From: Chloropicon primus | Taxonomy: Eukaryota | DNA length: 64,000 nucleotides | Direction: 5' to 3' | Assembly (NCBI GenBank): GCA_023205875.1 | Contig: CP060771.1 | Location: forward strand, 1-64,000 | In this document: in pieces, positions 1,279 to 62,209 of the stretch | Numbering within the stretch: the first letter of the stretch is position 1 | Layout: each line of letters starts with the position of its first letter | Translations under genes and position numbers: made by a program | The notes under the pieces: model-generated | Database searches by the model: none | The model's input: only the letters and a program-made list of their open reading frames with translations | What the model was told of the DNA's origin: nothing

Positions 1279-2112
1279 ACTTTTTCTTTCTGGTATAAGT
1301 TTTAAGTGTGATCTGGGTTTTAGTCGGCCATAAACCAGGTCGCATAAGACGACGGATTCCAGCAGAAGAGTGGATCAGGGTAAGGTTTACGATTGGACCT
1401 CTTCATTCTCTGGTGCCCTAGATTGCACTCCACCCGGAACAGGTCTCTCCATCACGGGCTCCATTCACATAACATCATCATCAGCCATGGAGGGCTGTGG
1501 TTTGGGTTTTAGTGGTTCGACAGATGGACCTCTACAGGTTCAAGGACGACGGGAAGATACACCATATTACAAGAGTATCCAAATATAAAATACAAACGCC
1601 TTCTGACAAAGTTTAATAGCCATCGGACACGAACTGGATCCGTCACTCCACTATTCGTACCAAAAAATAGGCCCCAAAATAGGCAATAAAGGCAACAGAA
1701 TCATATCATACACATCTACATTACACAATCAAGTCACCATTTACCAAACCAAGAGGATCCAAGCCACGCACTACTACCCACAAGCACCTCTCCTTGCCTC
1801 CCCTGATCTCCCACCCCCCCTGCATCACCCTCAACACCGTCCTCGACACCGGTGCTTGCTAAGCACTGCTTGGGCCCTTCCCCCGCTCCAACGGCCCACA
1901 CGTCGACGTGAAACTCACGAAACTTCTTCCAAGCCCAATCCACTCTTTGGCAAACATTGCCCCTCCTCTTCCCTCTCTCCCCTCCCCTGTCACGTCCTCG
2001 TGATCCCCCTCCTCCTCCTCCTCCTCCTCCTCTGCTCCTGCTCTGCCAGCTCACGCACACGTTGCTTTTCGCTTTCGATCGACTAAGCTCTCGACGGACC
2101 TCAACCGACACT

Positions 2113-2158
<46 letters not shown>

Positions 2159-2242
2159 GGCCGAGTCGTGTGGAGGAGCAGACCCAGACCTAGACCCAGA
2201 CCCAGACCCGGACGCACGCACCTGACCGCACCGCCCGTCGTC

Positions 2243-3515: not shown

Positions 3516-3621
3516 ACGCGGTAAGCAGCGGGTGGTTTTAATGTAGACGAGTGAAAACTAAAGGTGCGACGATAACAAGGACAACGCGACGAAAAAAACA
3601 CCACCCTATAAAGGTGCGAGA

Positions 3622-4695: not shown

Positions 4696-4884
4696 CGTCC
4701 TCCTCCACTGCCCACAACACCAAAGGCAGAGGAGCAGGCGCTTCCCTTGAGAAACAAAAAGAAACACACACGACACGACGACACGAGGACGAAACACGAG
4801 GAGGACGAGGAAGGGAACCAACCAACCAACAACACCCGTTACCATCATCATACGTTAGCCATCACCATCCGTGAGCATCGTCTA

Positions 4885-4951
4885 TCAATAGCTTCATCAT
4901 CAATAGCTTCATCATCAATAGCTTCATCATCAATAGCATCATCATCAATAA
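4885..4951. repeat. 15-bp tandem repeat (TCAATAGCTTCATCA), ~4.5 copies
   Basis: Read directly; lies in the divergent promoter region between the PPD5-like and DHHC genes. Confidence 0.9.
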
Positions 4952-5083
4952 TCCATCGTTGATGAGGAGGGAGGGTTGAAGAGCAGGGAAGCGACACGGC
5001 AAGCGCAGGGTCTGTCGCATCGCATCGCATCGCATCGCATCGTGTCGTGTCGTGCTGGTGGTGTGAGGAAGGACGGGGGTGGG

Positions 5084-6490
5084 ATGTTGTCCTACGTGTG
5101 GAGTGTCCTTGGGTTGGACAAGGAGGGAGGGGGGTTGGCCTTGTTCCTCTTGGGTTACCTCGGGTTCATGGCGTTCATCGTGTTCTCGGTGCTGTTCGGG
5201 GAGGCGGAGGCCTTGGAGAAAACGGTGGTCGGATGGTGCAACAGGTTCCTCATGGGTGGATGGTACGACGCGGTGGTGGGAGTGGCGGGGAGGCTGCCCT
5301 GTCTGGGCAAAGCCTGTGGCGCGGGGCTAAGGGTAAGTGCGCACGCCTTTGTGTGAGGACAATCCGCAACCACATCCGCATCCGGGTGGACGGCTCGGTC
5401 GAACAATCCATCCATCCATCCATCCATCCATCCACCGCAGTCGATCGTACTGCATTGCTTGCGCACGGGACTGACGCACGCACCTCGGATGAAATGGCTC
5501 CCTCTCTCTCTCTCCTTGTCCTTGTCCTTGTCCTTGTTGTTGTGGCAGGCCGCGGAGGAAGAGTGCTGCGGAACGCCCAACCCCTTCATGCAGGTGCTTT
5601 ACCTCGGCCTGGTCGCGGGGGGCTACCACGTGGCGAACATCTACGTCCTATCGGAGCAGGAGGCTGAGGCTGGATTGACCCCGACCTCGTCGGCATCATG
5701 GGGCTGGGCCCTTGCCCTCCTGCTGGAGAGGGCCGTGGCCGTTGCCCTCCTGCCCAGCCTCGTGGTCCTGGGACTGGTGCTCTTTGCGCTCACGTCCTTC
5801 TCGGATCCGGGAACCCTGACGAAGCAAAACTGCGAGGCCAAGGCCAAGGCTTACCCGATGGATGGCGTCCTGTACGAGGAGAAGGACTGCGGGACGTGCC
5901 TGCTGAGGAGGCCGGCGAGGTCCAAGCACTGCAGCGTCTGCGGCCGATGCGTCTGCAGGTTCGACCACCACTGCCCCTGGGTGAACAACTGCGTCGGGGA
6001 GAGGAACTTGAAGTACTTCCTGCTCTTCCTCCTGGTGCACTTTGCCTTGTGCTCCTACGTCAGCTGCATCATCGTCGCCCACGTGAGGCGGCAGTACCAC
6101 CGGAGGTTCGACTTTGGGCAGGGCAGTCCTCTGGGGTGGGGGGAGTGGATCCTCCTCGTCCTTCACTTTTGCTTCAACTCCTACCCGATCCAGGCGGTCG
6201 CCACGATCATGACCACCGTGCTGGCGATCATGCTGGGCGGGTTCCTCGGGTACCACCTCAGGCTCGCGGCGATCAACATCACGACCAACGAGATGTTCAA
6301 GTTCGAGAGGATCGAGTGCTACGAGAGGGCGGAGCTGGAGAAGAGGGGCGGGGCTGGTGCCGCCGCGAGGACTTGGCTCGGTTGGCTCGGGGACACGGTG
6401 AGCTCCGTGACCCACAGGAACCGGGTGCGTAGGAACATGTACGACAGGGGCTGCCTAGGGAATTTTGGCAGCATAATCTTTCCGGCGTGA
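5084..6490 (+). CDS. DHHC-type protein S-acyltransferase (palmitoyltransferase); exons 5084-5332 and 5549-6490
   Basis: CGTC...RPARSKHCSVCGRCVCRFDHHCPWVNNCVG plus TTNE motif and several TM segments. Phase-0 GT-AG intron 5333-5548 with CTGAC at 5471. Confidence 0.95.
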
Positions 6491-6718
6491 AGGGTGTGTT
6501 GGTTTAGGGCTCCACCCAAAAGAAGAAAAACGACTAAGTGTGTGTATATTGGAACAACAACAAAAAGAACTACTATCTATGGGGTCTTGTGTTTTACTTT
6601 TTTTTCTTTCATTTTTTTTTGCCGATGATAGTCTCTCTCTCTCTCTCTTTGGTACACGCGCGCGCTGCTTGCCTTGCCATGCCAGCATCATCCTCGTCGT
6701 CTGCATCACCGCCGCCCT

Positions 6719-7828
6719 CTAGGAGAGGATGGTGGTCTTCGCTATGAGGGAGGTGACGACGTAGGGGTCCATGTTGCTCGCTGGCCTCCTGTCCTCCATG
6801 TAGCCCTTCCCGTCCCTCTCGGTGTCCCTGCCGACCCTGACGCTTGCACCTCTGTTGGCCACTCCCCAGGAGAACGCGTCGATGGAAGCGGTCTCGTGGG
6901 CCCCGGTCAGCCTCCTCTCGTTGCCCTCGCCGTAGGCCTTGATGTGCTCCATGTGCTTCTCCTCGAGCTTGCCGATGGCCTTCTTGATGTGGGCCATGCC
7001 CCCGTCCGCCCTCATGGACTTGGTGGAGTAGTTAGTGTGGGCCCCGCTGCCGTTCCAGTCGCCGGGGATCGGCTTGGGGTCCAAGGACACGACGACTCCT
7101 GCCATCTCGCAGATCCTCTCCAGGAGGTACCTGCTGATCCACATCTGGTCCCCGCTCTCGATTCCGGTGCAGGGGCCTATCTGGTACTCCCACTGGGAGG
7201 GCATCACCTCCCCGTTCGTTCCGCTGATGTTCAGGCCGGCGTACAGGCAGGCCTTGAAGTGCGCGTCGCAGATCTCCCTGCCGCTGATCTTGTTGGCGCC
7301 CACCGCGCAGTAGTACGGACCCTGGGGCCCCGGGAACCCCTGCTCGGGCCAGCCGAGGGGCCAGTTGGTCTTCGCGTCGAGCAGCGCGTACTCCTGCTCG
7401 ATCCCGTACCACGGCTCCTCCCCCTTCACCTTGGGGTCCTCGAAGATCTTGGCCGCCGCGCGCCTGGAGTTGGTCTTCAGGGCGTTCCCGAACGGGTCCT
7501 CGCACTCGCACATGCAAAGCAGGTGCTGCCCACCCCTGAAGGGGTCCCTGTAAATCGCCTTGGGCACCAGGATGACCTCCGAGTCCTCCCCCCCGGCCTG
7601 GCCGGTCGAGGACCCGTCGAAGTTCCACTTACTGAGCTGGTCGACGGAGGTCACCCTCTTGGTCACGACCCTGGCCTTGGACCTGCAGTTCTCCATCGTC
7701 CCGTCGATCCAGATGTACTCCACCACCGTCGAGCTCAAGGGCGTAGGCATCTTCAGCAACTCCTCCACGGAGGTCGCACCCGTGTGCTCCTTCACGTCCT
7801 CCATCGCGATCCCGTTCCCCTTCGTCAT
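6719..7828 (-). CDS. GLN1: Glutamine synthetase type II (no transit peptide, probably cytosolic)
   Basis: [63 protein letters not shown]. Confidence 0.97.
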
Positions 7829-43290: not shown

Positions 43291-43967
43291 TTTTTTTCCC
43301 TTTTCATTAAAAAGTCTGTAAAACAAGCTAACCAGTAGTAGTCTACCACCAAACACCCATCAGATCAGATCAGAGAGAGAAAGAGAGAGAGAGAGAGAGA
43401 GGTCTCACCGCCACCACCACGCCTTGGTGTATTCTTCCCTTCCTCCTATCATGGTGGTTGTCTCCTCCCTGCTGCTAGCAGCTTGTGTACAGAGTCAGAG
43501 AGCGAACAGAGAAGAGAGTCAAAGAGAGAGAGAGAGAGAGAGAATGAGACAAGGGAAGGGATGGAAGCATTCCATGTCTATCCTTGATGTGATGCTAATG
43601 CTCCCCTCCATGTTTCCATGTCTCCTTGTTCTTCCTCCTGGATGGATTTGGGTGTATCTCCTTGTACACTTGTTGCGAGACTTCAGTCAACGAAGGCACG
43701 AGGCGATCAACATCAACGGCACCAAAGAAGCGGAGGAGAGCGTGACGCCCATCCATTGTGTGTGAGGTCCCTGGCTGGAGACACAAGAGAGGGGACTCGG
43801 GGCCACAAGTATCAACACATTAGCACCGGCCTATCGCTTTGAACACGGCCAAGACTCTGCCTTTGGATTGAATTCAGAGAATCTTGGAACTCAAGGCCAA
43901 GGTTGGCTGACTCTGCCTTTGGTTTGGTGCAGCAGCGAGACAAGTTGTGAAGAGGAGAAGGATTGTG

Positions 43968-45857
43968 ATGGAGAGCGGGACTCTGATGACGAACGTGGGT
44001 CAGCCGAGCCCACCGAGGGCGGACTCGAGGACGAGCGACGACGCTCCGGTACTTGTGCCGAACGACAACTCGGCAACGTCCTTGGAGAACGTTGTATCCC
44101 AAGACTCTTTGAAGGGTGCAGGTGTCCAAGGTGCGGCGGACTTGGGGCCGAGTGGGGATGCACAAGCCCATAAGCAGTTCCCGACGATCAAGCCGTTCCA
44201 GATGCCCTCGGATGACGACCTGTTCACGCTGAGGGAGCAGGAGAGAGAGATGAAGCGCATGGAGAGACAGAGGAACAAGAACCTTCAGGTGCAAGACAAG
44301 ACAACTTTCAGTAGCCGCATGTCGAGGACGTGTCCAAGTGACAAGAGCATGAACACCATTGTGAATCCTAGCGGGACGGCTACGGGAGCGGCCGGCATGA
44401 AACCTGTTGGGACGACGGGCGGACAGTTTGGCAAGTCTGGGTTGTCTGGCGCGACGTCCCAGCAGCTTGTGTCGCAGAGGACGAGGCTGGAGAGGGAGAA
44501 CATGTCTGACTTCATCGCGAAGAAGAGAGAGATCTTCTTGGTGCAGATGTCCCTCGACACCAAGAGGGCTGAGATCAGGAAGCTGGAGGAGAGGGCCTTG
44601 CAGAGAGAGGAGGCCCTGAGGAGGTCCGAGTCCATGCTCGAGGAGGACAAGCTGAGGTTCGAGGAGTTCCTGCGAGAGAACGACGAGAAGGTGAAGGAAG
44701 CCATCACCAAGGCAGAGGTCGAGACAAAGGCGAAGCAGGACAAGGTCAATGAGATCAAGAGGCTGAACGCCGCCATCGCGACCTTGAGGAGTGAGCTCAA
44801 CAAGTACGAAGAGCAGCTCGAGGACTGTCGAAAGTACAAGCAGTTCTTGGATTACTTGACCCCGTCAGAGTGGTTCGCGCAGCAGGACGAGAAGAGGAAG
44901 GAGCTGATAGAGAAGCGGCAAAAGGCTTTCAAGGAGAAGCTTGAAGCCTGGGACGAGGACCAGAGGAAGGCGATGGAAGCCGTTACGGCAGCCGAGCAGC
45001 TCCTGGAGAAGGCGAGGACCCAGCAGGAGGTGGACATGAACGAGAAGGCCCTGTCCAGAGCCAGGGAGAGCTTGGCTGAGGCCCAGAAGGCCCCAAAGCC
45101 GGTTCAGCCCACGTCCTACCTGACGGACGAGGAAGAGGAGCAGCTCTCCAGCGAGATGCACTTCAAGCACCCGCAACAACTCTTGGACATCTTTGCCCAG
45201 CTTGAGGAGCAGAACCTCTTCCTGATTCAGAACTGTCAGGAGACGGAGGAGGCTTTGGAGGAGCTCAAGACCAAGTACAGGGAAACGAAGCAGCAGATGG
45301 ACGCGGAGATCAAGGGCCTCGACAGCCAAATATCCTCCCTCGAGTCGTCCATCGGAGTGGAGGAGGAGAAGTCTCGACTCCTTCGGTCTCTCACCGACGG
45401 CACCGAGTCAAAGACCAGCGTGGCCAACGGGAAGACCAGTGAAGGAACTTCGCTGGAGGCCCTCTCCGCCAAGGTCTCAGAAGTCTACGTTCGCTGCGGC
45501 TTTGACAACGACGCGAGTTTGAGCACGCTGCAGATGCTCACGAACATCGAAGCGAAGTTGGACGAGTACTTTTCGATCATCGAGACCATGCCGACCGAGT
45601 TCGTGGAGCAGGCCGAGAAGGCCAAGGAGAAGGAGAGGAGGCAAAGGGCCAGGGAGGAGAAGCTTGAGCAGCAGAAGAGGGAGCAAGAGAGGAGGGTCCA
45701 GCGATCCTTGGAGAGAGCACAGGCACCTGTCATGAAGAAGACGGGCAAGCCTGTGATGTTCAGGTCTCACGTTGTGAAGAAGAAGGTGGTCGGGTCCAAG
45801 AACGTCAAGAAGAACGACGAGGAAGCTGAGCTCGAAGCTTTCCTTGGCCGTGTATAG
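43968..45857 (+). CDS. CFAP100: Cilia- and flagella-associated protein 100 (FAP100/CCDC37, MIA complex)
   Basis: RENMSDFIAKKREIFLVQMSLDTKRAEIRKLEE, YKQFLDYLTP, MHFKHPQQLLDIFAQLEEQNLFLIQN, KKTGKPVMFRS. Confidence 0.88.
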   Translation: MESGTLMTNVGQPSPPRADSRTSDDAPVLVPNDNSATSLENVVSQDSLKGAGVQGAADLGPSGDAQAHKQFPTIKPFQMPSDDDLFTLREQEREMKRMERQRNKNLQVQDKTTFSSRMSRTCPSDKSMNTIVNPSGTATGAAGMKPVGTTGGQFGKSGLSGATSQQLVSQRTRLERENMSDFIAKKREIFLVQMSLDTKRAEIRKLEERALQREEALRRSESMLEEDKLRFEEFLRENDEKVKEAITKAEVETKAKQDKVNEIKRLNAAIATLRSELNKYEEQLEDCRKYKQFLDYLTPSEWFAQQDEKRKELIEKRQKAFKEKLEAWDEDQRKAMEAVTAAEQLLEKARTQQEVDMNEKALSRARESLAEAQKAPKPVQPTSYLTDEEEEQLSSEMHFKHPQQLLDIFAQLEEQNLFLIQNCQETEEALEELKTKYRETKQQMDAEIKGLDSQISSLESSIGVEEEKSRLLRSLTDGTESKTSVANGKTSEGTSLEALSAKVSEVYVRCGFDNDASLSTLQMLTNIEAKLDEYFSIIETMPTEFVEQAEKAKEKERRQRAREEKLEQQKREQERRVQRSLERAQAPVMKKTGKPVMFRSHVVKKKVVGSKNVKKNDEEAELEAFLGRV

Positions 45858-46609
45858 AGAAGGCCAATCAATCGCCACACAAAATAATCAAATCAAATCC
45901 ATCCACTTGTAACCTATCGACAGTACACCATTTTGCATCAGCAGAAATAGGATATTGGTTGGTCCCAAAGACACTGGGGTGACCCTTTCCCCTTTCCCTG
46001 CGTCCTCCCTCCAGTCTTCACCAGCGATGGCTCCGTGAGAGCCCCGAGGCCCTTCCTCCTCTCGTCCTCCTCCTCTCGTCCTCCTCCTCTCCCCTGATGC
46101 TTGATCATGCTGCTGCTGCTGCTGCTGGGCTTCTCCCTCGTCGCCTAGCCGTTGGTCTGTGCATCTGATGTGGTTTACAATATTGTAAATTATTGTAAAT
46201 TATAGAAAGAGGGGAAGGAAGAGAGCGCAGAGCGCAGAGAGCAAGAGAGACATCACCAGAACTCCCTCACAAGCCGACCAAGGCGAGGCATGACTGAGGC
46301 AGGGAGGGAGGACACAAGGTGAACTAAAGCCGACACAATAGTAATAGTATACGACACGATAACGATACGATAACGATACGCACGTGTGGAGGTGTCAGTG
46401 CCGCACACAAGACAGCAAGACTTTGCCTTTGCGGTGAGGAGTCTGTTGTTGTGCCCGCCGGCAGGAGGAGAGAGAAGGACCAAGACGAGACTTGCCTTGT
46501 GACCGGCGGTTTGGGACAAAGGGTATAGGGAATTTCAACACGAGTGAGGCTCGGGACGTTGGAGAAGTAGGTCTGGTGACGAAGGCAGTGGCCCGAGGAA
46601 AGGGAAACC

Positions 46610-49600
46610 ATGTCCAAGTATTCTTTCTGGCTGCTCAAGCCGCACCAGAAGCCGGTGTCTTGCCAATTTGAGATTACGGAGGGCACTGGAGTGCGTCTGC
46701 TCCGTGACTCGGGAGGGCAACTTTTCAAGTTCACTTTCGAGAAGATTGTCAAGTGGAACCTAGGGAGGGACCCGAACTTCTTGGAGCTTCAGATACAGAT
46801 AGGCAAGACTGGTCCTGCAGGTAGCCTCAAGTTCCAAGTGAAAGATGGCACGTCCACTGACGACATCCACAACATCTTGGAGATAATCACGAGGTGCAAG
46901 GGAGGAGCAAGTGACGGGCAAGGTTCTAAGCCAAAGGCTTCATCCGTTCATGAGAAGACCAACGTGGAGAGGAAGAAGGAGGCCGAAGACATTCAGAGGG
47001 CCTCCAAGGAAAAGCTCAAGAAAATCAAGGAGGAGAGAAAACAGCAGTCCATGGTGCTGCAGCAAGCGAACGTGACCGTGGCCCCTCCCAAGAAGGACGC
47101 CGAGGCGATCAAGGACAGGATGGCACACCACAAGAAGAGCATCCAGATGAAGGTGGAGAGAAAGAGAAGTTTCGCTGTCACGACAAAAGAGCCGCAGAAA
47201 GAGGAGCAACCCAAGAAGGACCCTCCACCGCCTCCGCCTCCCAAGACGACCGAGAAGGCAAGGCGCAAAGCAAGCTCGAGGGCGTCCATCTACTCCTTGG
47301 CGAGCAGTTCGAACTACGAAGAGGAAGAGGAAGAGGGCTCGCCAGCCAAGGACGCCGTCCCTCAAGCTCCTCCACCAAAGCCCGCGGCGCAAGCATTGAA
47401 GCCAAAGGTGATGAAGAAAGCAAGGCAACCTTCCGGGATCATGCCAGCCTCTCGGGTGGTGTCCAAGGCCAAGCCACCGCCACCCTCGCTGTCAGCAATT
47501 GGAGAGGATGAAGGAGAGGAGGACAAGGGCGCCGCGAAGAGAAAGTCGGTTCCACCACCACCTCCAACCAGCCCAAGCCCGAGGAAACTGTCTTCTATTG
47601 CCGCCTCGTCTGCGACAAAGCCCCCTCCTCCTCCGAAGCCTTCGCCTCAGGCGGAACAGAAGAAGAAGATGAGCTTGGTCCAAGCAAGGAGGAGCATGTT
47701 CCAGCAGATGGACGGTGATTCGAACGTGAGGTCGAGCATAAGGTCAAGATCACCTTCACCGAAGCCAGGAGTGCGGAAAGAGGAAGCGGAGGGTGCTGCC
47801 ACGCCTCCGACCCCAGCTGCGCCTTCAGCGGCTCCGGCGTCCCCACCGCCATCACAGAAGAAGAAGACACCGCCCCCACCTGCTCCTGCTGCTGCAGACC
47901 CAAGCGCGAGCAGCGAACAGGTGGCTCGGAGTCCTCCAAAGGCAGAGAGCAATGCCGGCAACAGCGCGGCGGCTCAGGACACCGTTCCCGTGGCCGAGAA
48001 GCGGCCCAAGAGAGGATCTTTCATGCTGAACAAAATCGATGCCTCGAGCCAACCAGACTTGGCCGAGGCCAAGTCCACGATCAACATGCTCAAGATGGAG
48101 CTGCAGAAGCAGATGGAGAAGAGCCAGAGCATCGAGAAGAAGCTGGTCGACGCGAATACTGAGCTGGGAACCGTTACATCCAAGTACGACAGTGCCGTAA
48201 GGGAGAGGGACGCGTACCTTGAGGAGATCACAAGCTTGAAGAAAGCGAAACTGTCGCTGGAAGAGCAGCAAAAGGCAGGAGATTCTGGCGCGGGTCCAGA
48301 TTCAGAGGAGAACTCAAATCTCAGAGAGGAGAACTCAAACCTTTTGCAGTCCGAGGCCCTTCTTCTCAGGTCCGTAGTCGATGCAAGCGAGCGGCTCGGG
48401 GCTCTCAGAAACCGGTTGTGGCAAGTCTGCGAAGTCGGTGAGGAGGCTCCTGAGGGCGAGGAGTCAGAGGCAGATGACGCGGACGCCGATTTGCAGGAGC
48501 TCAGGCGCACCATCACCTCCCTGGCAAAGGCCGTGGAGACGATGGAGTCTGAAAAGCTGGAGAGGGAGGAAGAGAAGCAGCACCTGGAGAAGAAGCTCAA
48601 GAGAGAGCAGGGTCACAAGAAGAAGATGGAGCAGCAAATCAAGGAAGAGGGGGAGGTCACTTCTGCGCTCATGACCGAAGCGGAGGCCGCTGCGATCGAG
48701 GGGGAGGACATGAGGTCCATGATGGAGGAGTTCAAGCGAATTGCCGAGGAGAGGTCGAACGATCTGGAAAGCATGCAGATGCAGAAGGACCAGGCCTACA
48801 GCGAGCTGGCGAGAGTCACTAGGGATTACGATTTGCTCCGTGCAAACGTTGAGGAGTCCGTGGAGAAGGCCATTGCCGAAGAGCGGACGAAGAGTGTTGC
48901 TCACCTAAAGTCAGAGCTCTCGAAGGAGAAGCAAAAGTACGAGGGAATGCTTGAGGACTTGCTTCGGGACGAGGAAGAGAGGTCCAAGATGGAGGAGGAC
49001 CAAGCCGAGGAAATCGAGAAGCAGGTGGCGCAGGCACTGAAGGAGAACGAGAAGGTTCTTCAAGAGAGGCTGAATGAGCTCGAAGCTGAATTTGCTTCCA
49101 AGATGCAAAGTCAGGAGCAGGCAGGCAAAGCGGAGCAGGACGGCGCCTTGGACGAGGCGAAGGCCGAGTTGGAAGCGTCCAACGCTAAAGTGGGTTCCCT
49201 CGAAAAGGAGCTCCAAAAGGCGAAGGACAGGAACGCCAAGGACAAGGAGAACCTCGTTCGAATGAAGAGCGAGATCAGGGTGCTCTCTGCGAGGACGAGT
49301 AGCGCGTACCGGGCGGTGGAATCCTTCGTCGACCAGTCGACGACTTTTGCCGATTCTTCCATCTCTGCGCTTTTGCAAAAGTCCGAGGACTTCTTGCAGT
49401 CTGTTGAGAGGGAAGCATCCGAAGTGCTTACCGCACTGGAGGAGGAGATCGAGGAGGTCTCTAACGAGCTCAACTCTCATTTCCCAATGCCCAGCACCAT
49501 TGACATGTCTCCCTCCTCGACGGAGATGTCCCCGATGTCGAAAACGGGGCCAGAAGAGGACGAGGGCGAGGACGAAGGCGACGTTACGGAAGTTACGTCA

Positions 49601-52576
49601 ACCCAGAAATCCCCAGCCGCAGAATCATCCCCCAAAGCTCGCAAGAGCAAGGTCAAGAGAAAGAGCACTGCCCGCAAGTCTTTCATGTCTCCAACAAAGT
49701 CCTCCGAGGGCAAAATGGTTCATGTCGATCTCAGTCAGTTGCCAAAGAGTTTGGTGGGTAACTTGGCCGACGCCGCGGGAGAGAAGTCCGAGAAGCCAGC
49801 CACTTCTGCGAGGAAATCTTCCGTTGCAGCATCCACAACGCCTTCGGGAAGGCGAGAAAGCGTCGTGAAGAAGGCGGACTTGGAGCTGCTTTCTAAGGAA
49901 ATCTCAGACAAGGTCCGCAAGGAGTTCAGGGAGGCCATGAAGGACGATGAGGCCACTCGAGTCGAGCTTGCGCAGCTGAAGGAGGCCTACGAAGCTCTGC
50001 AAGAGGAGCTCCAGGCTTCCAAGGAAGGACTTGAGAGCTCCAAGAAGAAGGAGGCCGAGGCGGACTTGATCTGCGCGGCTGTTGAATCGCAGTGCCGCAC
50101 TTTGGCACTGGAGCTCGCCGCCCAGAAGCTTGTCAATACCTCCAATGCCGTGACAGGGGAAGAGGACGTGCTGGTGAAGGATTCCTCTCGGTCCGCCTCG
50201 TCTTTGGACATGGGGTCCAACAGGCTGGTGGTCCCCGTGGATATTGTGAAGGACACTTTGCCCCACTACACGTTGCTCGAGCTGGGCGACGTTGGCATGA
50301 AACTCGGTGCCTCTGAAGTGGCTTTGGCGAGGAAGCAGACGTGGGATTTCCCTTGGGATCGCGTCAACCAGATCACGGTCGGCATCGCGAACGAGTACGT
50401 CTCCCTGGATCTCTTTGAGCACGCAAACGCTGAGGCGGCTCACCTCCGAGTGAGGGACGTTCGCCACCTGAACACGGTGCTAACGGTGATCACGAAGAAG
50501 CGCATAGAGGCTGCCCTGGCGTCAACTACCTACGCCACCGGGGCCCGGGCCGCTACCTCTGGGTCTCCGGATGGCCTAGACTTTGGCCTGAACGTCACAA
50601 GGGTCTACCAGGATCCAGGGGAGGCAGCGGAGAATAAAGCCATGGGAATGCAGCTGAAGAGCACCGGTCCCGGCGGTTCCGTAACGGCTGGTGGGCGCCC
50701 AGGCCAACCGCCTGCTTCCACAACAATGTCTCCGGCTGTTGTTCGCATAAGTTCCGTTTCAAGAGGCCTTGCGAGGACGCATGCCAACTTGAAGAGGAGG
50801 CTTCTGTCCGAGGGACTCAGCTCCCAAAAGCCTTCGGTCGGGGACCAGCAAGATGTGAACCTTGGCGGCGCGGGTCCTGACCAGGTGGACATGCTAGAGT
50901 TCTCGGATGTCTGCAGCGAGGGGGGCGACTTGACCGATGCGAGCCTGCGCAAGATCGAGGAAGAGACCGAGAGGGAAAGGAGCCTTTGCTCCAAGGTGGC
51001 TTCTCTCGAGGCAGTTCGGAATGACTTGGTTCATAAGCTCGCCACCCTCCGTGTCAACGCAGTGAACGCTGTGATGCAGTCTCACAACGTCGTCAAGTAC
51101 CTGGCCAGCGCGAGCAGGGAGGACATGGCGTCGGACTTGAAGAAGATAGAGAGCGATGGAGCCCTGGACGAGGAGGTCAGAGATCTCCAAAAGGACGAGG
51201 ACGAGTCAGGAAAGTTCAGAGTGCCGAGCTGGAAGCCTGTCAACGAGTCTGTGAAGAGCCTGCTGAGCGAGAGCCTGTCTTGGTCGGCCAGCGACTTCGC
51301 GACCAGCAAGGGAAGGGCTGGGGGCACGGATTTCAGCTTCGGCATGAATGATGCCGAGAAGGAGGCCTTCTTGGTGGCTCAGGCCGAGGCCGAGCTCACT
51401 CAGAGTGCAGTGAACTGCCTCGAGTCCCTGTGGAGCGACCGGGTCAAGAAGGTTCAGGGCCAGCTGGCTCTGGTGTCTCAGAAGGGAGAGGAAACGCAGG
51501 AGCATGAGTCGACCCTTTTGCAGGACTTGGCAAGCGCAAGGGCGCAGGTGGCCACTCTTCAGGAGGAGCTGACGTTCTCCAACAGAGAGTTGAGCACGCT
51601 GAAGCACGTCTACGAGTCTCAGGAGTTGGAAGAGAGGGAAAGGCTCAAGGTCGGTGACCAGGACGAGCCTGAAGTGATCTCGGGCGATGGCTTGGCGGAC
51701 TCGCAATCTCAGGAGATGGCCATAGTCTTGACGGGCGGTTCGAGCCCAACCAAGCAGCAGCAGCAGCAGTCCGGGGTGCCCGCACCTGCTCGAGGCAAGC
51801 TCCCTGACCACATCGTGAGCTCAGTCCAGGTCATCAAGCCGTACACCTACCTTGCCCCGAAGAAGGAAACCAAGGAGAAGGGTGGCGAGCCCTCTCCCTT
51901 GGAGGAGGTTGTGGACGCAAAGCAGACGGAGGACATGGTCAACGAGGAGAATGAATCCCGCCAGCGGCTTATCGTTGCCAATTACGATGACATCCAGATG
52001 AGGCAGAAGCAGCTTGCGCTGGAGGTCTCCGAAGCGGTGGAAAACTTGAAGTACATCGATGAAAAGCTCTCAGATTTGGACAATGCCGCCAGCGTTGTGG
52101 GTGAGAAGGTGGAGTCTTACTTTGAGAACTTGACTTCGATGGAGGAATCCTATGACAGGAACAAGCAGAAGCTCGGTCAGATCGAGCAGGAGATCTACGA
52201 GCAAGACCGCAAAATAGCTGAGGTGAAGTCTTCTGTTGGAACCGTTACGTCCCAGCAAGAGAGCTTGGCCCAGCAGCTGCGCCAGCAGACCGCCCCACAC
52301 AGCGTGCCGAAGAAGGTTGTGACGTTCGCGTCACCTCCGTCGGCCGAGACGGGCGTCTCACCCCTTTCGGAGAGGAAGGAAAACAATGGGGTGTCGAGCG
52401 TGCCCCCGTTGGCCTCCATGATGGACCTTGGCATGATGTACGGACAGAGTGTGCCCTCCACGCCCACTGCGCAAGTCTCTTCCCCCGTGACGCCCCCGAG
52501 CTCAAGGGTCTCGCTGAGCGTGAAAGCCAAGAAGCTTGAGAACGTTGTCCAGAATATCATGGACCTCATCGGTTAA
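46610..52576 (+). CDS. Large (1988 aa) coiled-coil scaffold with PH-like domains and a Pro-rich region
   Basis: Single long ORF. Beta-rich N-terminal domain (FKFTFEKIVKW), polyproline stretches, long E/K coiled coils and a second PH-like segment (WDFPWDRVNQITVG). Confidence 0.8.
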   Translation: MSKYSFWLLKPHQKPVSCQFEITEGTGVRLLRDSGGQLFKFTFEKIVKWNLGRDPNFLELQIQIGKTGPAGSLKFQVKDGTSTDDIHNILEIITRCKGGASDGQGSKPKASSVHEKTNVERKKEAEDIQRASKEKLKKIKEERKQQSMVLQQANVTVAPPKKDAEAIKDRMAHHKKSIQMKVERKRSFAVTTKEPQKEEQPKKDPPPPPPPKTTEKARRKASSRASIYSLASSSNYEEEEEEGSPAKDAVPQAPPPKPAAQALKPKVMKKARQPSGIMPASRVVSKAKPPPPSLSAIGEDEGEEDKGAAKRKSVPPPPPTSPSPRKLSSIAASSATKPPPPPKPSPQAEQKKKMSLVQARRSMFQQMDGDSNVRSSIRSRSPSPKPGVRKEEAEGAATPPTPAAPSAAPASPPPSQKKKTPPPPAPAAADPSASSEQVARSPPKAESNAGNSAAAQDTVPVAEKRPKRGSFMLNKIDASSQPDLAEAKSTINMLKMELQKQMEKSQSIEKKLVDANTELGTVTSKYDSAVRERDAYLEEITSLKKAKLSLEEQQKAGDSGAGPDSEENSNLREENSNLLQSEALLLRSVVDASERLGALRNRLWQVCEVGEEAPEGEESEADDADADLQELRRTITSLAKAVETMESEKLEREEEKQHLEKKLKREQGHKKKMEQQIKEEGEVTSALMTEAEAAAIEGEDMRSMMEEFKRIAEERSNDLESMQMQKDQAYSELARVTRDYDLLRANVEESVEKAIAEERTKSVAHLKSELSKEKQKYEGMLEDLLRDEEERSKMEEDQAEEIEKQVAQALKENEKVLQERLNELEAEFASKMQSQEQAGKAEQDGALDEAKAELEASNAKVGSLEKELQKAKDRNAKDKENLVRMKSEIRVLSARTSSAYRAVESFVDQSTTFADSSISALLQKSEDFLQSVEREASEVLTALEEEIEEVSNELNSHFPMPSTIDMSPSSTEMSPMSKTGPEEDEGEDEGDVTEVTSTQKSPAAESSPKARKSKVKRKSTARKSFMSPTKSSEGKMVHVDLSQLPKSLVGNLADAAGEKSEKPATSARKSSVAASTTPSGRRESVVKKADLELLSKEISDKVRKEFREAMKDDEATRVELAQLKEAYEALQEELQASKEGLESSKKKEAEADLICAAVESQCRTLALELAAQKLVNTSNAVTGEEDVLVKDSSRSASSLDMGSNRLVVPVDIVKDTLPHYTLLELGDVGMKLGASEVALARKQTWDFPWDRVNQITVGIANEYVSLDLFEHANAEAAHLRVRDVRHLNTVLTVITKKRIEAALASTTYATGARAATSGSPDGLDFGLNVTRVYQDPGEAAENKAMGMQLKSTGPGGSVTAGGRPGQPPASTTMSPAVVRISSVSRGLARTHANLKRRLLSEGLSSQKPSVGDQQDVNLGGAGPDQVDMLEFSDVCSEGGDLTDASLRKIEEETERERSLCSKVASLEAVRNDLVHKLATLRVNAVNAVMQSHNVVKYLASASREDMASDLKKIESDGALDEEVRDLQKDEDESGKFRVPSWKPVNESVKSLLSESLSWSASDFATSKGRAGGTDFSFGMNDAEKEAFLVAQAEAELTQSAVNCLESLWSDRVKKVQGQLALVSQKGEETQEHESTLLQDLASARAQVATLQEELTFSNRELSTLKHVYESQELEERERLKVGDQDEPEVISGDGLADSQSQEMAIVLTGGSSPTKQQQQQSGVPAPARGKLPDHIVSSVQVIKPYTYLAPKKETKEKGGEPSPLEEVVDAKQTEDMVNEENESRQRLIVANYDDIQMRQKQLALEVSEAVENLKYIDEKLSDLDNAASVVGEKVESYFENLTSMEESYDRNKQKLGQIEQEIYEQDRKIAEVKSSVGTVTSQQESLAQQLRQQTAPHSVPKKVVTFASPPSAETGVSPLSERKENNGVSSVPPLASMMDLGMMYGQSVPSTPTAQVSSPVTPPSSRVSLSVKAKKLENVVQNIMDLIG

Positions 52577-54101: not shown

Positions 54102-54792
54102 GGCGTCCAACGCAGCGTCTCTCCACCCTCCAACGCCAACGTTATCGTTATCCTACGTGGATGGACCGAACCACAAAAACTTTGGTCAGCCAAGGTGAAC
54201 GTGAACGTGTCCAGTTTCGTTCAAGGGAGGGCTCTTTCGAAAGAGAAAGAAGAGACGCTTCGTTCTGCGTGATCCTCTTGCACGCGAGGGAAGCGCCTCG
54301 ACCGCCACGCTCGCGCAAAAGGACTCACCTTGGTCTCCGAGTGCCGACGTCGCCTCGTCTTCGTCTTTTCTTTTTTCAGTTTGTCTTTTTCGGAATCGGT
54401 GTAAAAGAGTCGCACAATGAGTGTAATGAAAATAGGGTTTAGTTTTAGGGTTTTCGTCCAAGAATGAAGCTCTGGCGCTGTGGCTGGAGCCTGGTTCATC
54501 AGCCAACAAATGGTTCCTCTCTCTGCCTCTCTCTCTCTCTGTCTCTGTCTCTCTCTGTCTTGGTCGATTGACCCCCACGACAAGAAGGATGGTGATGATG
54601 ATGAGCGGTCGGCCGTATACGCTCAGAGCAACAGCAGCAGCAGCAGCAGCAAGCTGTCTCTCCTTGGGACTTGTGTGAGTCCTCTCTCTCTCTCTCTCTC
54701 TTTATGTATGTGAATGTTGATATAATACTCAATAGGCATTTTATGTGACGATATTGAGAAAGGAGTGGCCCAAAACGCCCGCCATATTTGTT

Positions 54793-57700
54793 TTACTTTT
54801 GCATGCTAATGAACCTCGACCGCTTCTTCTTCACTTTCTTCGTGGCGACTGGCAAGTTGGCGACGACGTCGTCCTCCTCGCCCTCGGCAAACGTTCTCAG
54901 AAGACTCTTTCGCTTCTCCTTCACGAGGTGGGAGATCTGGTGGTGCTCCACGTTCTCGTTGGAGCCCTCCAGGAAGTAGGTGTGCATGATGCCCTTGCCC
55001 TTGACCTGGATGTCGCCCCTTTCCCTGATCTTATAGTTCCCGCCCTTGAGGAAGTTCTGGGAGGCTTCCGTCATCTGGCACGTTCCCGGAATACCCGTGC
55101 TGATCATCCTCGACGCCGTGTTGACCGTGTCGCCAAAGATGTGGTAGAACGGACGGTGGACACCAATGATTCCGGCGGTGACCGGACCCGAGCTCATTCC
55201 AAAGTTGATCTTCACGTCCAAGCCAGACTTGTTGTTCTCCCGAGGAACCCAGTCATCCGTCTTCAATATCAGCAGCTGGGACACGAAGTTCGCCACGAGC
55301 TGGGCGTGGTTGTTCTTGGCTTTGGGCATGCCGCTGGCGGCCAAGTACATGTCCCCGACCGTCTCCACCTTGTACAGCTGGTGCCTGTCGACGAGAATGT
55401 CGAAGACGAAGAAGATCGTGTTCAGGAGCTCGACCACCTGGACGGAGTCCAACACTTTCGTGACGTGCTTTTCAAAGCTGTCGATGGAGCAGAACACCAG
55501 AGTCACTTGCTTGAACTCGTGGCAGATGGGAAACACGGTGGCCCCGTAAAGCTCCTTGGCCACTGCCTCCGGAAGCATGTTGTTGAGCACGATGTGAGAC
55601 TTTTGCCTCTCCAGCTTCTGGCCGAGCTCGCCAAGGAAGTCCTTCCTCTGGTTGTACTCCATGGTGAAGACCATGTAATTCACGAGGGATGCGAAGGTCA
55701 TGACGTAGCCCAAGGACCAGAACAGGTGCTCCTCCTTGAACTCGAGCCAGGGCTTCGCGATCTGATCGGCTATTACGAAGTAGCCCACGATGCTCGTATG
55801 CAGGACAGCGATGATGTAAAGCAACGGAATCGTGACGACGGACCTCAAGCGAAGGAAGAACCCGCAGAACAAGATGTAGAGCATGATCCCTCCGTAACCT
55901 GGCTCCTTGCCCACCACCGACAAGAAGCTGCAGGCGATGCCCAGCAGCGTGGCGAGCAGCATGCTCACCGAGGTGTAGGCTTTGGGCCTGGTGTACCACT
56001 GAGTGAAGGAGAACGCCAGCCAGATGACCGTCAAGGGAAGGGCCCCGAGGTACCTCACCAGCAGCAGGCTCTCCAGGGCGCTGTCCTTCCTGATCACGTA
56101 GTCGTACAAACCGAGGGTGGCAATGAAGAAAAGGAGGCAAGTGATGTTGAACCTCCTCCAGGGAATCTCGTTCGAGAGTCGAAGCTGGAACAGGGACTCG
56201 GCCCTGTCGTAGTCGAACAGCAGCGTGATCCCGTTGATGTTGGTGTTCTTCAGGACAACTCCTTCCACCATGCACTCGGCAAGACTGGCCTCCATGGAGT
56301 GTCCCACCCACGAGACCGCGCCCTTGAAGATTCTGTTTGTGATCTGGCTCACGTTGTTGGTAAAAGACTCGAGCTTGATGGAGGAGAGCTCCATCCTGCC
56401 CCCCCCCCTCCTCGCGCCAGGCTCCTTCTTCTTGTACCTGGCCTTGATCGGGATCACCCGCGTCATCTTGTTCCTCCTGTACTGGCAGCAAGACATCAAC
56501 TTCCCCGATATCGACTGCAGGAGGCCTTCTCCCCCATCTGGGATCTCCTCCTCGTCGTCCTCGCTGTCTTCGCTCCCCTTCTTTCCTCGCATGATCGTGG
56601 GACGCATTCCAGGGAAATCCTCCCTGCTTCCAGGGAAGGCTTCCTTCTTGTTGTTCGCCTTCTTCTCCTTCTCCCCAGCCTTGGGGCTGAACGGAGATTC
56701 AGGGATGTCGCCTATGTCATCGTCGTTCAGCCCCACTTCCAAAGAACCGACGGAACCAGTGTCTTCCCTCTCGTTGGTTTCGTCCATGTTTCCAATCACG
56801 GACCCCACCCCTTTGACCACGCTGTCCAGGAGACTCTCCTCTGGCATGATGCTGATGCTCTGCCTTCTCGAGACGTTCCTGTTCAAGGAATGCACGGAAT
56901 CGATGTACAGCCTGTTGATGCACCACATCCTTAACCCCGGGTTCTTGGCGATGTAATCCATGAAGTTCTCCTTCTTGATCTTGAAGGCCATTCCCCTCCT
57001 TATGCATTCCGCCTTCGTTACGCAGGGGAGGCTCTCGCTGTCAAGCAAAGCGTTCATGTCTCCAAGGATGGAACCGACCCCGAACTTCAAAGTCTTCGTC
57101 TTTTCCACCTCGATCGTCAGCTGAATCGTCGCGGACAAGTTGATGATGCAGTACTGAGCCACGTCGCCGATATCCCAAAGCACGTCCCCTTGGTTGATCT
57201 CGTACCTCTCGGCGATCGACATCAAGTTCGTCTTCTGCACGGAGGTGAGATCCTTGAACATAGTGTTACAGAGCAGGGTGTCGAGGAAGCCAAACGCCTG
57301 CATGTCAAGCATCTTGGTGATCTTCTGAGAGGCCTCGGGCATCTCATCAAGCATCTGCTGGAGGTCCTTTCCGCTGATGCTTATGGCTTCCACGTCCGTG
57401 AGGGCCGAAATGTCCACGTTACTCAGGTGGCCCGGCAGCAAGCAGCACTCCCCAAAATAGTCCCCAGAATAAGCTTTGGAGTGTATCTTTCCCATGTCGC
57501 TATCGATGTTAACGATTCCCAACCGAATGATGAAGAAATTGTCGACCCTGTCCCCTTCCTTGCAGATCAGAGATCCGGGGGAGAACTTGACGTTTTGGGC
57601 AAGCTGGAGAATGTCCCTCGCCCTGTCGCCGGTCATGAAGATTCCCTTGAAGAATGGTATCGTCTCCAGCAGCTCGAGGACCTCCACCGCATCCCCGCTC

Positions 57701-60700
57701 TCCTTGGCCTCGATGTCCAAGACCAGCGTGTTTTCCACTCCCTCTCGGGCCAGCTTAAGGCCAAGGTCGTTCGGAACGTCCTTCTCCGCGATGTGCACGA
57801 GCCACATCCTCTCCTTGACGTCTTCAGGCAAGGAGCTCAGGCTTCTCACAGGCGTATGAATGGGAGGAACTCCGCACTCGTGCAGTATGAGAGAGTAGTC
57901 CCAAGTCTGCTGCAGCAGCATGTCTTTCCTCTCGTTCGACATCACGCCCTCCTTGTGCATCTTCTCGATCAGCTCCACGTCATTGCAAGTGTCGCCAGAG
58001 TAATAGATCGTCTTCCCGCAGAACTTTGCCACGATACCGATGGCAGGAATGGTGTGCATCGTGTAAAACACGTTGATTTCTCCTCCGTTGATCAGGATGG
58101 GCTCGCCCACGATCGCGGGCCTCGCAATGAATAGCGTCTGCAGGAACTCCTCCTCAAGGTTCGTGAGGAGCGAATACTTTCTGATGAAGGAGTTCAAAAT
58201 TGCCGTGGTCGTGATCACGGTGCACTGGGTCTCTGCGAGAATTTTCTGCAGAGTTCCGCCGTCGTGGTCCGCGTGACAATGCGTCACCATCACCGCATCG
58301 ATCAGCCTGGCAGGGATGCCATAAGACTCCAACAAGGCCACCGAATTGAGTGGAGGGTCAACCATGATGCCTCTGCGGTTCATCCACAGCACAAAACCCG
58401 TCGTGGTTCGGTTCGGATCGAACCCATGGGAGGAACCAAGGATGGTTACGCCAAACAGTGGAGGGTCGAACTTCCGGGATGGGGTGTGAACGTGCTCGTT
58501 CAAAATCTTCTTCAGGGCGTGGGACTCCGTGGCGATCTTCGTGGGAATTCTCGCAATCGTCTCCCCGTTCTCTCGGACCTCAAAGCCGCTGACAACGTCC
58601 TTGATAACGACCTCCACGGAAGAGTCGATGTTCTTGCTTCCCGAAGCTTTCAGCTTCTCCAGCAGCTCACTTGTGATGTTGATCTCCCCAGAGGTCTTGT
58701 CAAAATGAATGAACTCCATCAGCTGGTCTGGGTCATCGAACGTTCTCAGCGAGGCGCACTCCTTGACAACATCTGACCTGCATTCTTTGGGAAAGTTTTC
58801 GCTGTACTCGATATCGTAGTCAATCGTGCTTGGCCCCACAAGAGTCTCTCGAAGCACTTTCCTGAGCCTCCTTTCCACCGAAGGATAGGTCAAGAACGTG
58901 GGCTTCCTGCCGAGCACGAAAAAGTTGAAGTAGGTTGGGAACTCCACCTCTGCCATGCAGATTCCGCACTTCTGGTCGAAGAGCTGGTGGGGTATGACGT
59001 AGCACACGGGCATCTTGTCCCTGATATCCTTTGCGGCCTCCATCTTCATGAGCATTGCGTCCTTGATGGTCTCCGGAGGGATTCCGAACTGGATGTTGCC
59101 TATGGCGGTGCGAACCATCACACCACCCCTTGGCAGCTGGACCACGCGGTCGCCGAGACTCGCCACGTTAATGGGGGCGCTCTGGTCTTGGTGGTTATCC
59201 TCGAAGTAGGAGGTCTCCTTCTCGTCCTCCGTCTCTTCGGTGATCATGCTCGTGGACTGGCCCTGCTTGAAGAACGTGGTTCGCCTACGCGTGTGCTTTC
59301 TCAGCGCCATCTGCGTGTGCTTCGACTTTGTTTTCCCCTGACCCTGCTTTTGCTGCGCCATCTCCTTGAGCCCCGCGGTGGTGAACTTGCCACTCTCATC
59401 AGGCACGGGCTCCAGCTTCTCCTCCGGCATGTCTATGTCGTCGGGACCCATCATCTTACCAAACTTAGTGGTCTGGGCGTGAAGGTCTCCCCTGATGCTT
59501 CCGAACACAGGAAGGCTAGCCCTCTTGGCAAATTTGACTTTCTTAGACTTCTTCCCCTGTATCTTGAAATCCTCCTCCTGTTCCTTGAGCTCGTCCACGC
59601 GCTCCTGCACCAAGTTCTGCAGCTTCTCCCTAGCCTTTTCTATCTGCTTGGTGATGCTATCGTTCCCTCCTTCCTTGGGGCCAATCAACAAGTACGTCTC
59701 CATCTTCTTGTCCTCGTGGCCCTTGATCTCGATCCAACCTCTCCTCTGCAAAATGAAGTACTCTTCCAGCAGTGTCTTGGTATAACTGCTGACCTGTATC
59801 GCACCTTCTACACCCCCTGCTTCAAGGTGCTCCGCAGTCGCTACTGTTTCTCCCCAAAGATGGTACCTCGGCATCTTCATCCCGATCACCCCAGCGATGA
59901 TGGGGCCGGAATGGATACCTATGCGGATGTTCACTGGATAATTGTTCGTGCTGTTGATGATCGGAATCTGCTCCAGCATACTGAGGCCGAAGTTCGTGAT
60001 GGACGCGGCGTTGATCTTGGACTTGAGAGTGATCTCCCTCTGCGTCAGCTTCCTGTCGTCCACGGAATCGTCGTTCATGTCAAGCCCACTGACCGCCTCG
60101 TAGGCGTCCCCGATCGTCTCCACCTTGTACACCCCGTAAATGTCCGTGAGCCTATCGAAAACGCAGTACAAGTTGTGCAACAAGATACAGATGTCCGAAG
60201 GATGCTTGTCCCCGGACAGCTTGGTGAACCCAACGATGTCGCTGAACAGAACCGTGGCCACTGGGAACTCGTCCGCGATGGCTTGGGTCCCGCTGCGAAG
60301 GGCCTTCACGGCCGAGGAAGGCAACAGGTTGTGCAAAAGATGGTTCATCTTCCCTGCCTCTAGTTGCACAATCACCGCGTTAAGGAACTCGCCCCTGAGC
60401 GTATTCTCTTGTACGTAAGACCCATACATGCAGCAGATATCGAGCAGCAGCAGCACGCCCACGTCGTTGAAGATCTTCCGGTTCCAGTCCGGCCTGTTGA
60501 ACTTTGGGTACTCGTTCCCAAGGTCGTCTTCACTCTTTACATACAAAAAGGCGTAGTGCGCCCCAATGATACACAACGTGCTCACGCTCGCCTTGAAGAA
60601 GCGAGACTGTGTGACGTGCGTCCCATCAAGCAGGCCAGAAAGAAAGAGAGAAAGAAAGAGAGAGACAAATTGAAATTGTTGTGGGTCAGCATCACTCCCA

Positions 60701-61491
60701 CCTAAGCTCACGAGGGGCGTGCATGGTCGCCATCGCGTTCTTTCTCTCCCACCGGTGCTGGTGCTGGTGTCGGTGACGGTGACGGTGACTTACCTTGGAG
60801 AGAAAAAAGGTATAAAATACAAACATGAAGACTGGTCCGTAGCCGGCGTAGTCTCCACCCAAGACGGCCATCGCAGAGAGCCCCGTGCCAAAGATGAAGT
60901 TGAAGATGGAGATGGCATACTGGATGTAGTGCTGGTACGTTTTCGTGGTCGACAGCAAGAGCAGCATGACCCCGAGGGGCAAAAGGGCCGCATATCGAAT
61001 GATAACGAGCGTGCCCAGCGACAATATCGAATCGTGATCGTTGTTGACGTGATACGAAAAGTCTGCGATACCTAAGAGCGCCGTGATCACTAACAAACAA
61101 AAGCACGCGATCTGACTCCTTTTCTTCACCAGCGTGTAATAGTGTGTGCCGAAGTCTTTCTCAAGCTTCGAGTCTTGGAAAGTCAGGAGGATGCGGTTTG
61201 TCTTCACATTCTCTACCGCTTTCTGTGGTTCGGGCCGTGGCGGCGTGGCAAGAAGAAACGAGAACACAAGCAAGTCAGTCTATCTGCGAGTCGGAGGAGG
61301 AGGAGGAGGAGCAAACCTTCCAGAAAACCATAGAGGAGGCTTTCCATGGTTTGTGTTTGAAACATTCAACTTGCCTGCTTGTGGTGCCAATTGATCAGCT
61401 CTTCTATTCCCGAGGCGTGGACCGTGGGCTTCCCATTGTCGTCCGTTTTCTCCTCGGGCAGGATGTTCGACAATTTGAGACTCCCCGACAT
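54793..61491 (-). CDS. Multi-domain membrane nucleotide cyclase: TM block - class III cyclase C1 - MBL phosphodiesterase - 2x cNMP-binding fold - TM block - cyclase C2; exons 61491-61375, 61222-60794, 60606-54793 (~2119 aa)
   Basis: C1: VLFSDIVGFT, YKVETIGDAY, RIGIHSG. MBL: GIMVDPP, THCHADHDGG, MHTIP, YSGDT, LHECG, WLVH. CNB: ICKEGD...GDYFGE. C2: YKVETVGDMY, YHIFGDTVNTASRM. Both introns are phase 0. Confidence 0.93.
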
Positions 61492-62209
61492 AACTGAGGT
61501 CCACTTGGTACTACGACTCTTATCGTTCAAGTATAGTTCAAGTACGCCATTCTCTCACCAAGCTCCCGAGACACGCAAGCTTCCCCCCTTGTTCAACGAA
61601 TGAATGCAATGTACTCCGGTCCCAAGGTTTCAACCTAAAGCCTTTCAGGCCGAGTTCATATATCCTGCCCCCTCTCTTCCTCCGGCTCCCCTGTGCAGGG
61701 TTTGAATCCCACCACCCCCTGGACCTCTTGCCTTCAAACCGGTAAGGCGGTTTCGGTTTAGTTGTGTGAACCAATTGCCTCCTCACTCTTGTGCCGTCCA
61801 CTTGGACCCAACCAAAGACAGAGACCAGGAGAGACAGAGTGAGAGTGAGAGAGAGAATGACAATGCGAGTGCGAGTGTATCGCTCCAAGGGTCAGGGGGC
61901 TCCTCCGGGTCGCTCCTGTTGCCCTCTCTCTCCTGGTTGTCCTCAAAACCTTATTCCTTTCCATCGTCATCGTCTAGGACCGTCTTGGTTTCGGTCCTTG
62001 CGATAATACACGTTACCCGAAGAACCCGAAGAACCCGAACAAGTGGAGAGCACGAGAGTAAACATTCCACATGGGACCAGAACGAAAGAGAGAGAAAGAG
62101 AGTCACGAGATGGAACGTCTTGGGAAGAATGAAAACGACAATTGAATTCAATCCTCTCTCAAGGTCTCAAGAGAACGACAGAGAGAGAGAGAAAGAAAGA
62201 GACACAGAG

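Follow-up and report, generated by a model that had tools for sequence, protein, structure and literature searches.

A Chloropicon primus gene joining a predicted 12-transmembrane guanylyl cyclase to an internal PdeD-type phosphodiesterase module

A single gene on the minus strand of Chloropicon primus contig CP060771.1 encodes both halves of a class III cyclase, each following six predicted transmembrane (TM) helices, together with a metallo-beta-lactamase (MBL) domain and two cyclic nucleotide-binding (CNB) domains that lie between the halves. The gene was found in positions 1 to 64,000 of the contig, the whole stretch analysed here and referred to as the window. The architecture is real, conserved and apparently undescribed: the concept of a cyclase and a phosphodiesterase (PDE) in one chain is known, but the build appears to be new. 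We read the protein as a 12-TM guanylyl cyclase (GC) with a tethered PdeD-type cGMP PDE, keeping cGMP short-lived and local and likely serving a flagellated or sexual stage, and give this reading a probability of about 0.58. On this account the first cyclase domain (C1) would supply the metal-binding aspartates and the second (C2) the purine and transition-state residues (Table 1) to a single site that would convert GTP to cGMP, which the MBL domain would then hydrolyse. The two enzymes would be joined by loose linkers of 170 and 210 amino acids (aa) rather than docked, any feedback would speculatively run through kinase phosphorylation of linker motifs, and the protein would be at work in a stage unseen in culture.

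Gene model, integrity and distribution of the fusion

The order along the protein is six TM helices and C1, a 170-aa linker, a 756-aa MBL-CNB module, a second linker of 210 aa, then six more TM helices and C2. The window protein matches QDZ25583.1 (C. primus, 2070 aa), which is annotated only as 'guanylate cyclase'. Our three-exon model gives 2119 aa with a stop only at the end. In the NCBI model intron 1 is spliced differently, and that model is shown here to lack 49 residues with the first TM helix, which is present both in C. roscoffensis WZN66566.1 and in P0122, a single 2198-aa protein that is continuous over both exon junctions. The first intron (window 61375-61222) is of the GC-AG type; its GC donor is kept in the metagenome locus L001, where both introns occupy identical positions and the downstream neighbours are those found in C. 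primus.

As the initial annotation had claimed, the C1-to-C2 stretch lies in a single exon, with an open frame of 1937 codons. Pfam matches on this last exon comprise two stretches of Guanylate_cyc (E 5.6e-96), two of cNMP_binding (5.3e-19; 57705-56893) and Lactamase_B_2 at 5.2e-6, which at 26.6 bits falls just below its cut-off of 27; P0122 scores above it (35.3). Hydropathy at a threshold of 1.2 gives 6+6 TM helices in both the C. primus protein and P0122, and not all twelve are resolved at the stricter threshold of 1.5. Both TM blocks, both cyclase domains and the two CNB folds are placed much as in the initial annotation, whose MBL motifs are also all found at the positions given (THCHADH starts at 58284). 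Its MBL span has to be narrowed: the domain is present, with the catalytic part confined to 58470-57718, while 59160-58471 is probably a degenerate second MBL unit.

Table 1. Positions of the exons and domains of the fusion gene within the window.
Feature	Positions	Strand	Basis
Exon 1, aa 1-39	61375..61491	-	ATG start at 61491; GC-AG intron next; GC donor also in L001; P0122 contiguous across junction
Exon 2, aa 40-182, TM1-TM4	60794..61222	-	Aligns with P0095 and P0122; hydropathy
Exon 3, aa 183-2119 and stop, TM5 to end	54793..60606	-	Open frame
M1, six predicted TM helices, intron 2 inside	60412..61114	-	Hydropathy
C1, class III cyclase, metal-binding half (D305, D349); without Asn/Arg (A438, H442)	59683..60288	-	Pfam, alignment
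Linker 1, weakly conserved save KRASLP (S546) and RRRTT (T625)	59161..59682	-	Alignment
Module N-terminal part IQFGIPPETIKD, probably degenerate second MBL unit	58471..59160	-	Model residues 3-482 against RNase Z 5mtz, 8cbl
MBL catalytic domain (D932, H958, H960, D962, H963, H1033, D1054, H1091, H1099, H1120)	57718..58470	-	Alignment, fold match
CNB-A, FGE kept (E1235); Ser1244 (codon at 57423) at phosphate-binding Arg site	57298..57705	-	Alignment
CNB-B, degenerate cassette GDMNAL, like PdeD-family relatives	56893..57297	-	Pfam, alignment
Linker 2, weakly conserved, SRRQS (RRAS in deepest cluster)	56152..56892	-	Alignment
M2, six predicted TM helices	55663..56145	-	Hydropathy
C2, class III cyclase, purine/transition-state half (E1930, H2004, N2011, R2015, K2053); S1889 for first metal Asp	54967..55536	-	Alignment

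Five 90%-identity clusters carry the fusion: that of C. primus, one with C. roscoffensis and three further, the other four being 86, 84, 78 and 60% identical to C. primus over the last exon. Of 493 proteins compared, 372 have an MBL match and 42 combine MBL with cyclase; all 42 belong to the five clusters, so no fusion outside them was found among the 372. The word-index search covered proteins up to 3390 aa. A search of 1.84 billion representatives with C1, MBL and CNB gave only one protein spanning the query (P0002) among the best 150 listed, and in a metagenome scan (33 of 64 parts, best 80 of 297) L001 was the sole fused locus among 79. Stand-alone MBL-2xCNB proteins are common in bacteria and protists. 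The bacterial locus L038 was rejected as a fusion: at 276-7629 an unfused membrane class III cyclase gene and a stand-alone MBL-2xCNB gene are near neighbours, the former two genes upstream of the latter. A gene close to both is presumably glycerophosphodiesterase-like.

The fusion architecture is confirmed at the DNA level. That an assembly or annotation artefact joins separate genes is hardly credible: a transcript across the gene was not seen, but C1 to C2 form one open frame, the fusion recurs in five clusters and on many independent contigs, L001 carries it with conserved neighbours, and P0122 is one open reading frame. The mis-assembly that the initial annotation had allowed for is effectively dismissed by these observations. 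A 7701-base contig from run X1 spans 54718-62167 with zero differences; X1 may itself be the source of the window DNA.

Predicted cyclase and phosphodiesterase activities

The division of catalytic residues between C1 and C2 is the same in all five clusters: the metal Asp residues are in C1, and the Asn, Arg, Lys and purine residues are in C2. Under the pseudo-heterodimer scheme, such a split between halves gives one active site (PMC6592433), and C1 and C2 are predicted to pair in this way. The first purine residue is Glu instead of Lys, which points to GTP as the substrate.

The initial annotation had likened this layout to both protist GCs and mammalian adenylyl cyclases (ACs), and each comparison holds in part. 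With the protist 12-TM GCs (Dictyostelium GCA; alveolate and stramenopile enzymes, with or without a P4-ATPase) the fusion shares the 2 x 6 TM topology, the pseudo-heterodimer and the purine Glu. The functional order, however, is reversed: the protist inverted GCs have the Asn/Arg half first, whereas the fusion has the metal half first in five of five clusters, and none of the protist enzymes compared carries a PdeD-type PDE. With mammalian AC1-9 both the topology and the metal-half-first order, which is that of mammalian-type ACs, are common to the fusion, but the purine pair is Lys/Asp there (AC8 and AC5 aligned) and Glu/His here. Also unlike the mammalian enzymes, the fusion has about 1350 aa from C1 to the next TM block, with a whole enzyme inside.

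Among 99 other two-domain cyclase matches, drawn from the best 120 of 3237 and containing no mammalian-type AC, the Asn/Arg half comes first in 79, other patterns are found in 20 and the metal half comes first in none. Removal of 13 P4-ATPase fusions, 3 truncated rows, 1 duplicate and 1 nematode row from the 79 left 61 protist GCs for comparison. Unmasked, C1 scores nearer to their second domains (55/61) and C2 nearer to their first (60/61). With catalytic columns masked, the likeness of C2 to first domains persists (55-61 of 61, or 44 under the broadest mask), and that of C1 to second domains falls to 30-36. The best score for M2-C2 is to the first half of a Platysulcus 12-TM cyclase (168.7 bits, compared to 92.5 for AC8). 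These alignments show a reversed half order; circular permutation as its cause, with tree support of only 83-86, is suggestive. Given the reversed order, a standard protist GC gene that simply gained an insert in its C1b loop is not the obvious history. One other 12-TM cyclase, P0410, has a first domain with a Glu and His purine site that groups with C2 (SH-like support 94, flagged as a long-branch join).

The ligands of the MBL domain are invariant in the fusion rows covering them and are kept in 222-225 of 225 stand-alone rows. An AlphaFold2 model of the module (142-row alignment) is of high confidence, with a predicted local distance difference score (pLDDT) of 92.3 and a predicted template modelling score (pTM) of 0.93. 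The best fold match of the catalytic part is Apyc1 (7u2r; Z 23.4, root-mean-square deviation 2.5, 224 residues aligned, 20% identity), followed by other RNase Z-like MBL folds at Z of about 19-20. Apyc1, an anti-Pycsar MBL nuclease, is a cyclic nucleotide (cNMP)-cleaving enzyme with the same catalytic fold, but it is small, soluble and without CNB or cyclase parts, and its Pfam profile scores 16.6 bits here against a cut-off of 50, below the family threshold. Since the model also aligns with long-form RNase Z, the first 230 residues of the module are probably a degenerate second MBL unit; the C-terminal part matches the tandem CNB domains of PKA and PKG. NCBIfam gave no match to the module above cut-off, and the ESM Atlas search no usable match.

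The module is 41-42% identical to Acytostelium and Dictyostelium purpureum proteins. In a FastTree phylogeny of 205 rows it is sister to an eight-row amoebozoan clade (support 99 by the Shimodaira-Hasegawa-like approximate likelihood ratio test, SH-aLRT), a placement repeated under an IQ-TREE mixture model (99 with 44 rows; 98 with 43, one long branch dropped). The clade comprises Dictyostelium purpureum, Acytostelium, Synstelium, Phalansterium, Protostelium and three further proteins, and its D. purpureum member (id 98774) is PdeD. PdeD/GbpA and PdeE/GbpB are class IIb enzymes (PMC11988041, PMC8684759, PMC4758236) in which an MBL domain with the HCHADHD motif is likewise followed by two CNB domains; they are soluble, stand-alone and activated by cNMP, in contrast to the module embedded in a 12-TM cyclase. 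PdeD itself is a cGMP-stimulated cGMP PDE with the motif HCHADHDS (PMC3188802), which reads HCHADHDG in the fusion. The initial view of the module as PdeD/E-like is supported by this kinship and motif, and we infer that the MBL domain is an active cGMP PDE.

Vertical origin of the module beside a green-algal Cymbomonas homolog was rejected (approximately unbiased test, p = 0.0018), the grouping having been named after the tree was seen. The stem branch is long (0.99 changes per column), and hidden paralogy with losses would explain the placement as well as gene transfer.

Other arrangements of PdeD-type domains were also observed. Two Rhodelphis marinus proteins (P0006, P0010) carry a C-terminal class I PDE by Pfam in addition to the MBL-CNB, giving two unrelated PDEs per chain. 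Inteins break up the MBL of P0009 and P0013, and one of them has a weak LAGLIDADG match; P0008 has a similarly large MBL insertion with no intein match.

Relative to L001, the ratio of nonsynonymous to synonymous substitution rates (dN/dS) is 0.036 for C1, 0.051 for MBL, 0.042 for CNB-A, 0.069 for CNB-B, 0.075 for M2 and 0.053 for C2, compared to 0.20-0.23 for the linkers. Every domain is, by these ratios, under purifying selection, and the values for the folded domains (0.036-0.075) therefore indicate that both enzymes are maintained. We see little likelihood in a protein with a single live activity, be it one whose MBL module has a regulatory or scaffolding role or one whose cyclase anchors the PDE to the membrane. 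The function of either part is predicted from sequence, and the long stem branch of the module would suit such a change of role; both sets of catalytic residues, however, are kept down to 60% overall identity, and dN/dS is at most 0.075 in both enzymes. A node of cross-talk, in which the nucleotide made by the cyclase differs from the one that the PDE removes (cGMP made and cAMP destroyed, for example), so that a futile cycle would be avoided, is somewhat easier to entertain but still distinctly unlikely. The PDE family holds both cGMP- and cAMP-preferring members in the literature cited, the purine site is atypical, and opposite activities tethered on one substrate would cost energy; yet the nearest characterised relative, PdeD, is a cGMP enzyme, and C2 has Glu and lacks the Lys/Asp pair of adenylyl cyclases.

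The CNB pair, feedback and known cyclase-phosphodiesterase fusions

The initial annotation proposed synthesis, feedback sensing and hydrolysis in one protein. The cyclase and PDE residues are indeed intact in a single chain, but sensing is doubtful, because CNB-A has Ser in place of the phosphate-binding Arg and CNB-B is degenerate. CNB-A reads GDYFGE...GHLSNV, and the residue aligned with this Ser in yeast PKA-R and Plasmodium PKG is an Arg that binds the cyclic phosphate. All 35 fusion rows, which come from five clusters and include many near-copies, have Ser at this site, with the next Ala changed to Val. The stand-alone relatives have Arg in 179 of 225 rows, PdeD included, and lack it in 46 (gaps counted); CNB-B is degenerate throughout the relatives shown.

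We think that classical cGMP feedback via CNB-A is weak or lost and that the CNB pair is retained for a structural role within the PDE. The alternative, a self-limiting pulse generator in which cGMP bound by the CNB folds in a non-canonical pocket activates the PDE, seems improbable to us without being far-fetched. GDYFGE is kept, dN/dS of CNB-A is low, the 46 stand-alone rows suggest that the family tolerates loss of the Arg, and both PdeD and PdeE are activated via their CNB domains (PMC11988041, PMC3188802). Against this stand the uniform Ser with its following Val, the alignment of the site with canonical Arg residues, and the degeneracy of CNB-B.

Feedback could instead be carried by the linkers. 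The motifs KRASLP (KRTSLP in one cluster), RRRTT and RRQS/RRAS are kept amid sequence that is 33-69% identical. The KRASLP and RRRTT consensus is basophilic-kinase-like, resembling PKA/PKG sites, and a role of these motifs in kinase feedback is speculation. A bolder form of our reading, which we regard as unlikely, is a cGMP pulse generator with permuted protist 12-TM GC halves around a PdeD module acquired from an amoebozoan-type lineage, kinase feedback in place of CNB sensing, and use in gametes only. If true, it would be a new second-messenger wiring and a marker for an unseen flagellate gamete stage.

CAPE and CAPE-like proteins of stramenopiles already provide precedents for cyclase and PDE in one chain. 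CAPE is found in those streptophytes that have motile sperm and has been linked to male gametes (PMC5159850); class I PDE-cyclase fusions are also reported in stramenopiles (PMC8115329). As the initial annotation stated and PMC8115329 agrees, CAPE uses a class I PDE, which is N-terminal and followed by one C-terminal adenylyl cyclase domain; in the fusion an MBL PDE lies between two halves for which GTP is predicted. CAPE and the fusion are of independent origin, and the fusion is a member of neither CAPE, the inverted protist GCs nor the mammalian ACs. A Nitzschia protein (P0403), in which precomputed Pfam domains place a class I PDE alongside two cyclase domains, is another cyclase-PDE fusion.

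In keeping with the initial impression that the architecture was uncharacterised, no description of a 12-TM cyclase that carries an MBL PDE within its chain was found in the literature searched, with subscription papers mostly outside it; the supplementary Physarum figures of PMC4758236 could hold a similar fusion. The word 'phosphodiesterase' is absent from the main text of both Chloropicon genome papers, the mention in the available portion of PMC12301720 is limited to expanded guanylate cyclase families, and PMC4412288 and PMC1435932 provided background only.

The fusion would represent an independent way of making and degrading cyclic nucleotides in one chain, with a PDE class other than that of CAPE placed between cyclase halves. 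It offers a natural system in which to study the effect of tethering on cGMP signals, and its Arg-to-Ser change a natural probe of the role of a PdeD-type CNB pair without the canonical ligand contact.

Expression and candidate life stage

The gene is flanked by A3770_18p81000 on one side and by the Cwc15 gene (18p81020) on the other, and was taken as A3770_18p81010. Its RNA depth in Supplementary Data 5 of PMC6731263 is 0.04, compared to 11-156 for 26 of 30 listed cyclase genes. Of 22 flagellar-gene rows in the part of the table covered, 18 have an RNA depth below 1, and two genes annotated as PKG, in a gene table covered up to chromosome 18, have depths of 0.42 and 0. In C. primus the complement of flagellar genes is nearly complete and the meiosis genes are silent, and the cells are without flagella (PMC6731263). 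From this co-silence and the parallel with CAPE, a role in a hidden gamete stage can be inferred. If expression does track the silent flagellar and PKG genes, the fusion would provide a handle on the unseen sexual stage of an abundant open-ocean alga.

Several points weigh against the reading of the protein as a cGMP-making, cGMP-destroying enzyme of such a stage. The second purine position is His rather than the classical GC Cys, and is Lys/Arg in 58 of the 61 protist inverted GCs compared. The link from Glu/His to GTP specificity is drawn from Dictyostelium GCA, which reportedly has this pair. The substrate preference of the PDE rests on kinship with PdeD in a tree that has the cAMP-preferring PdeE outside it, and CNB-A, as constrained as the catalytic domains, may still bind ligand. 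As for the life stage, the locus tag was assigned from neighbours, 4 of the 22 flagellar rows are listed at 1.95-33.9, a third PKG-annotated gene is expressed (RNA depth 20.5), and low RNA depth is compatible with activity under any condition other than those used, of which a flagellate stage is only one. No gene-spanning transcript was seen, and RNA runs X15 and X16 gave no real cover at the contig level, an absence that carries no weight as evidence.

Run X16 does cover both neighbour genes, with the Cwc15 intron spliced. In metatranscriptome X13, three short contigs about 98% alike lie over 54791-55677 and could be DNA.

Three further features were observed elsewhere in the window. Positions 43911-45857 encode a DUF4200 protein, a family that we take to be cilia-associated (CCDC37/CFAP100-like). 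A 1998-codon open reading frame at 46580-52576 has no Pfam match and a coiled-coil-rich look, and is both conserved and in synteny in L001 (54-83% identity). Positions 1-300 consist of telomeric repeats, chiefly CCTAAAA with shorter and longer units mixed; the canonical C. primus telomere unit given in the genome paper is CCTAAAAA (PMC6731263).

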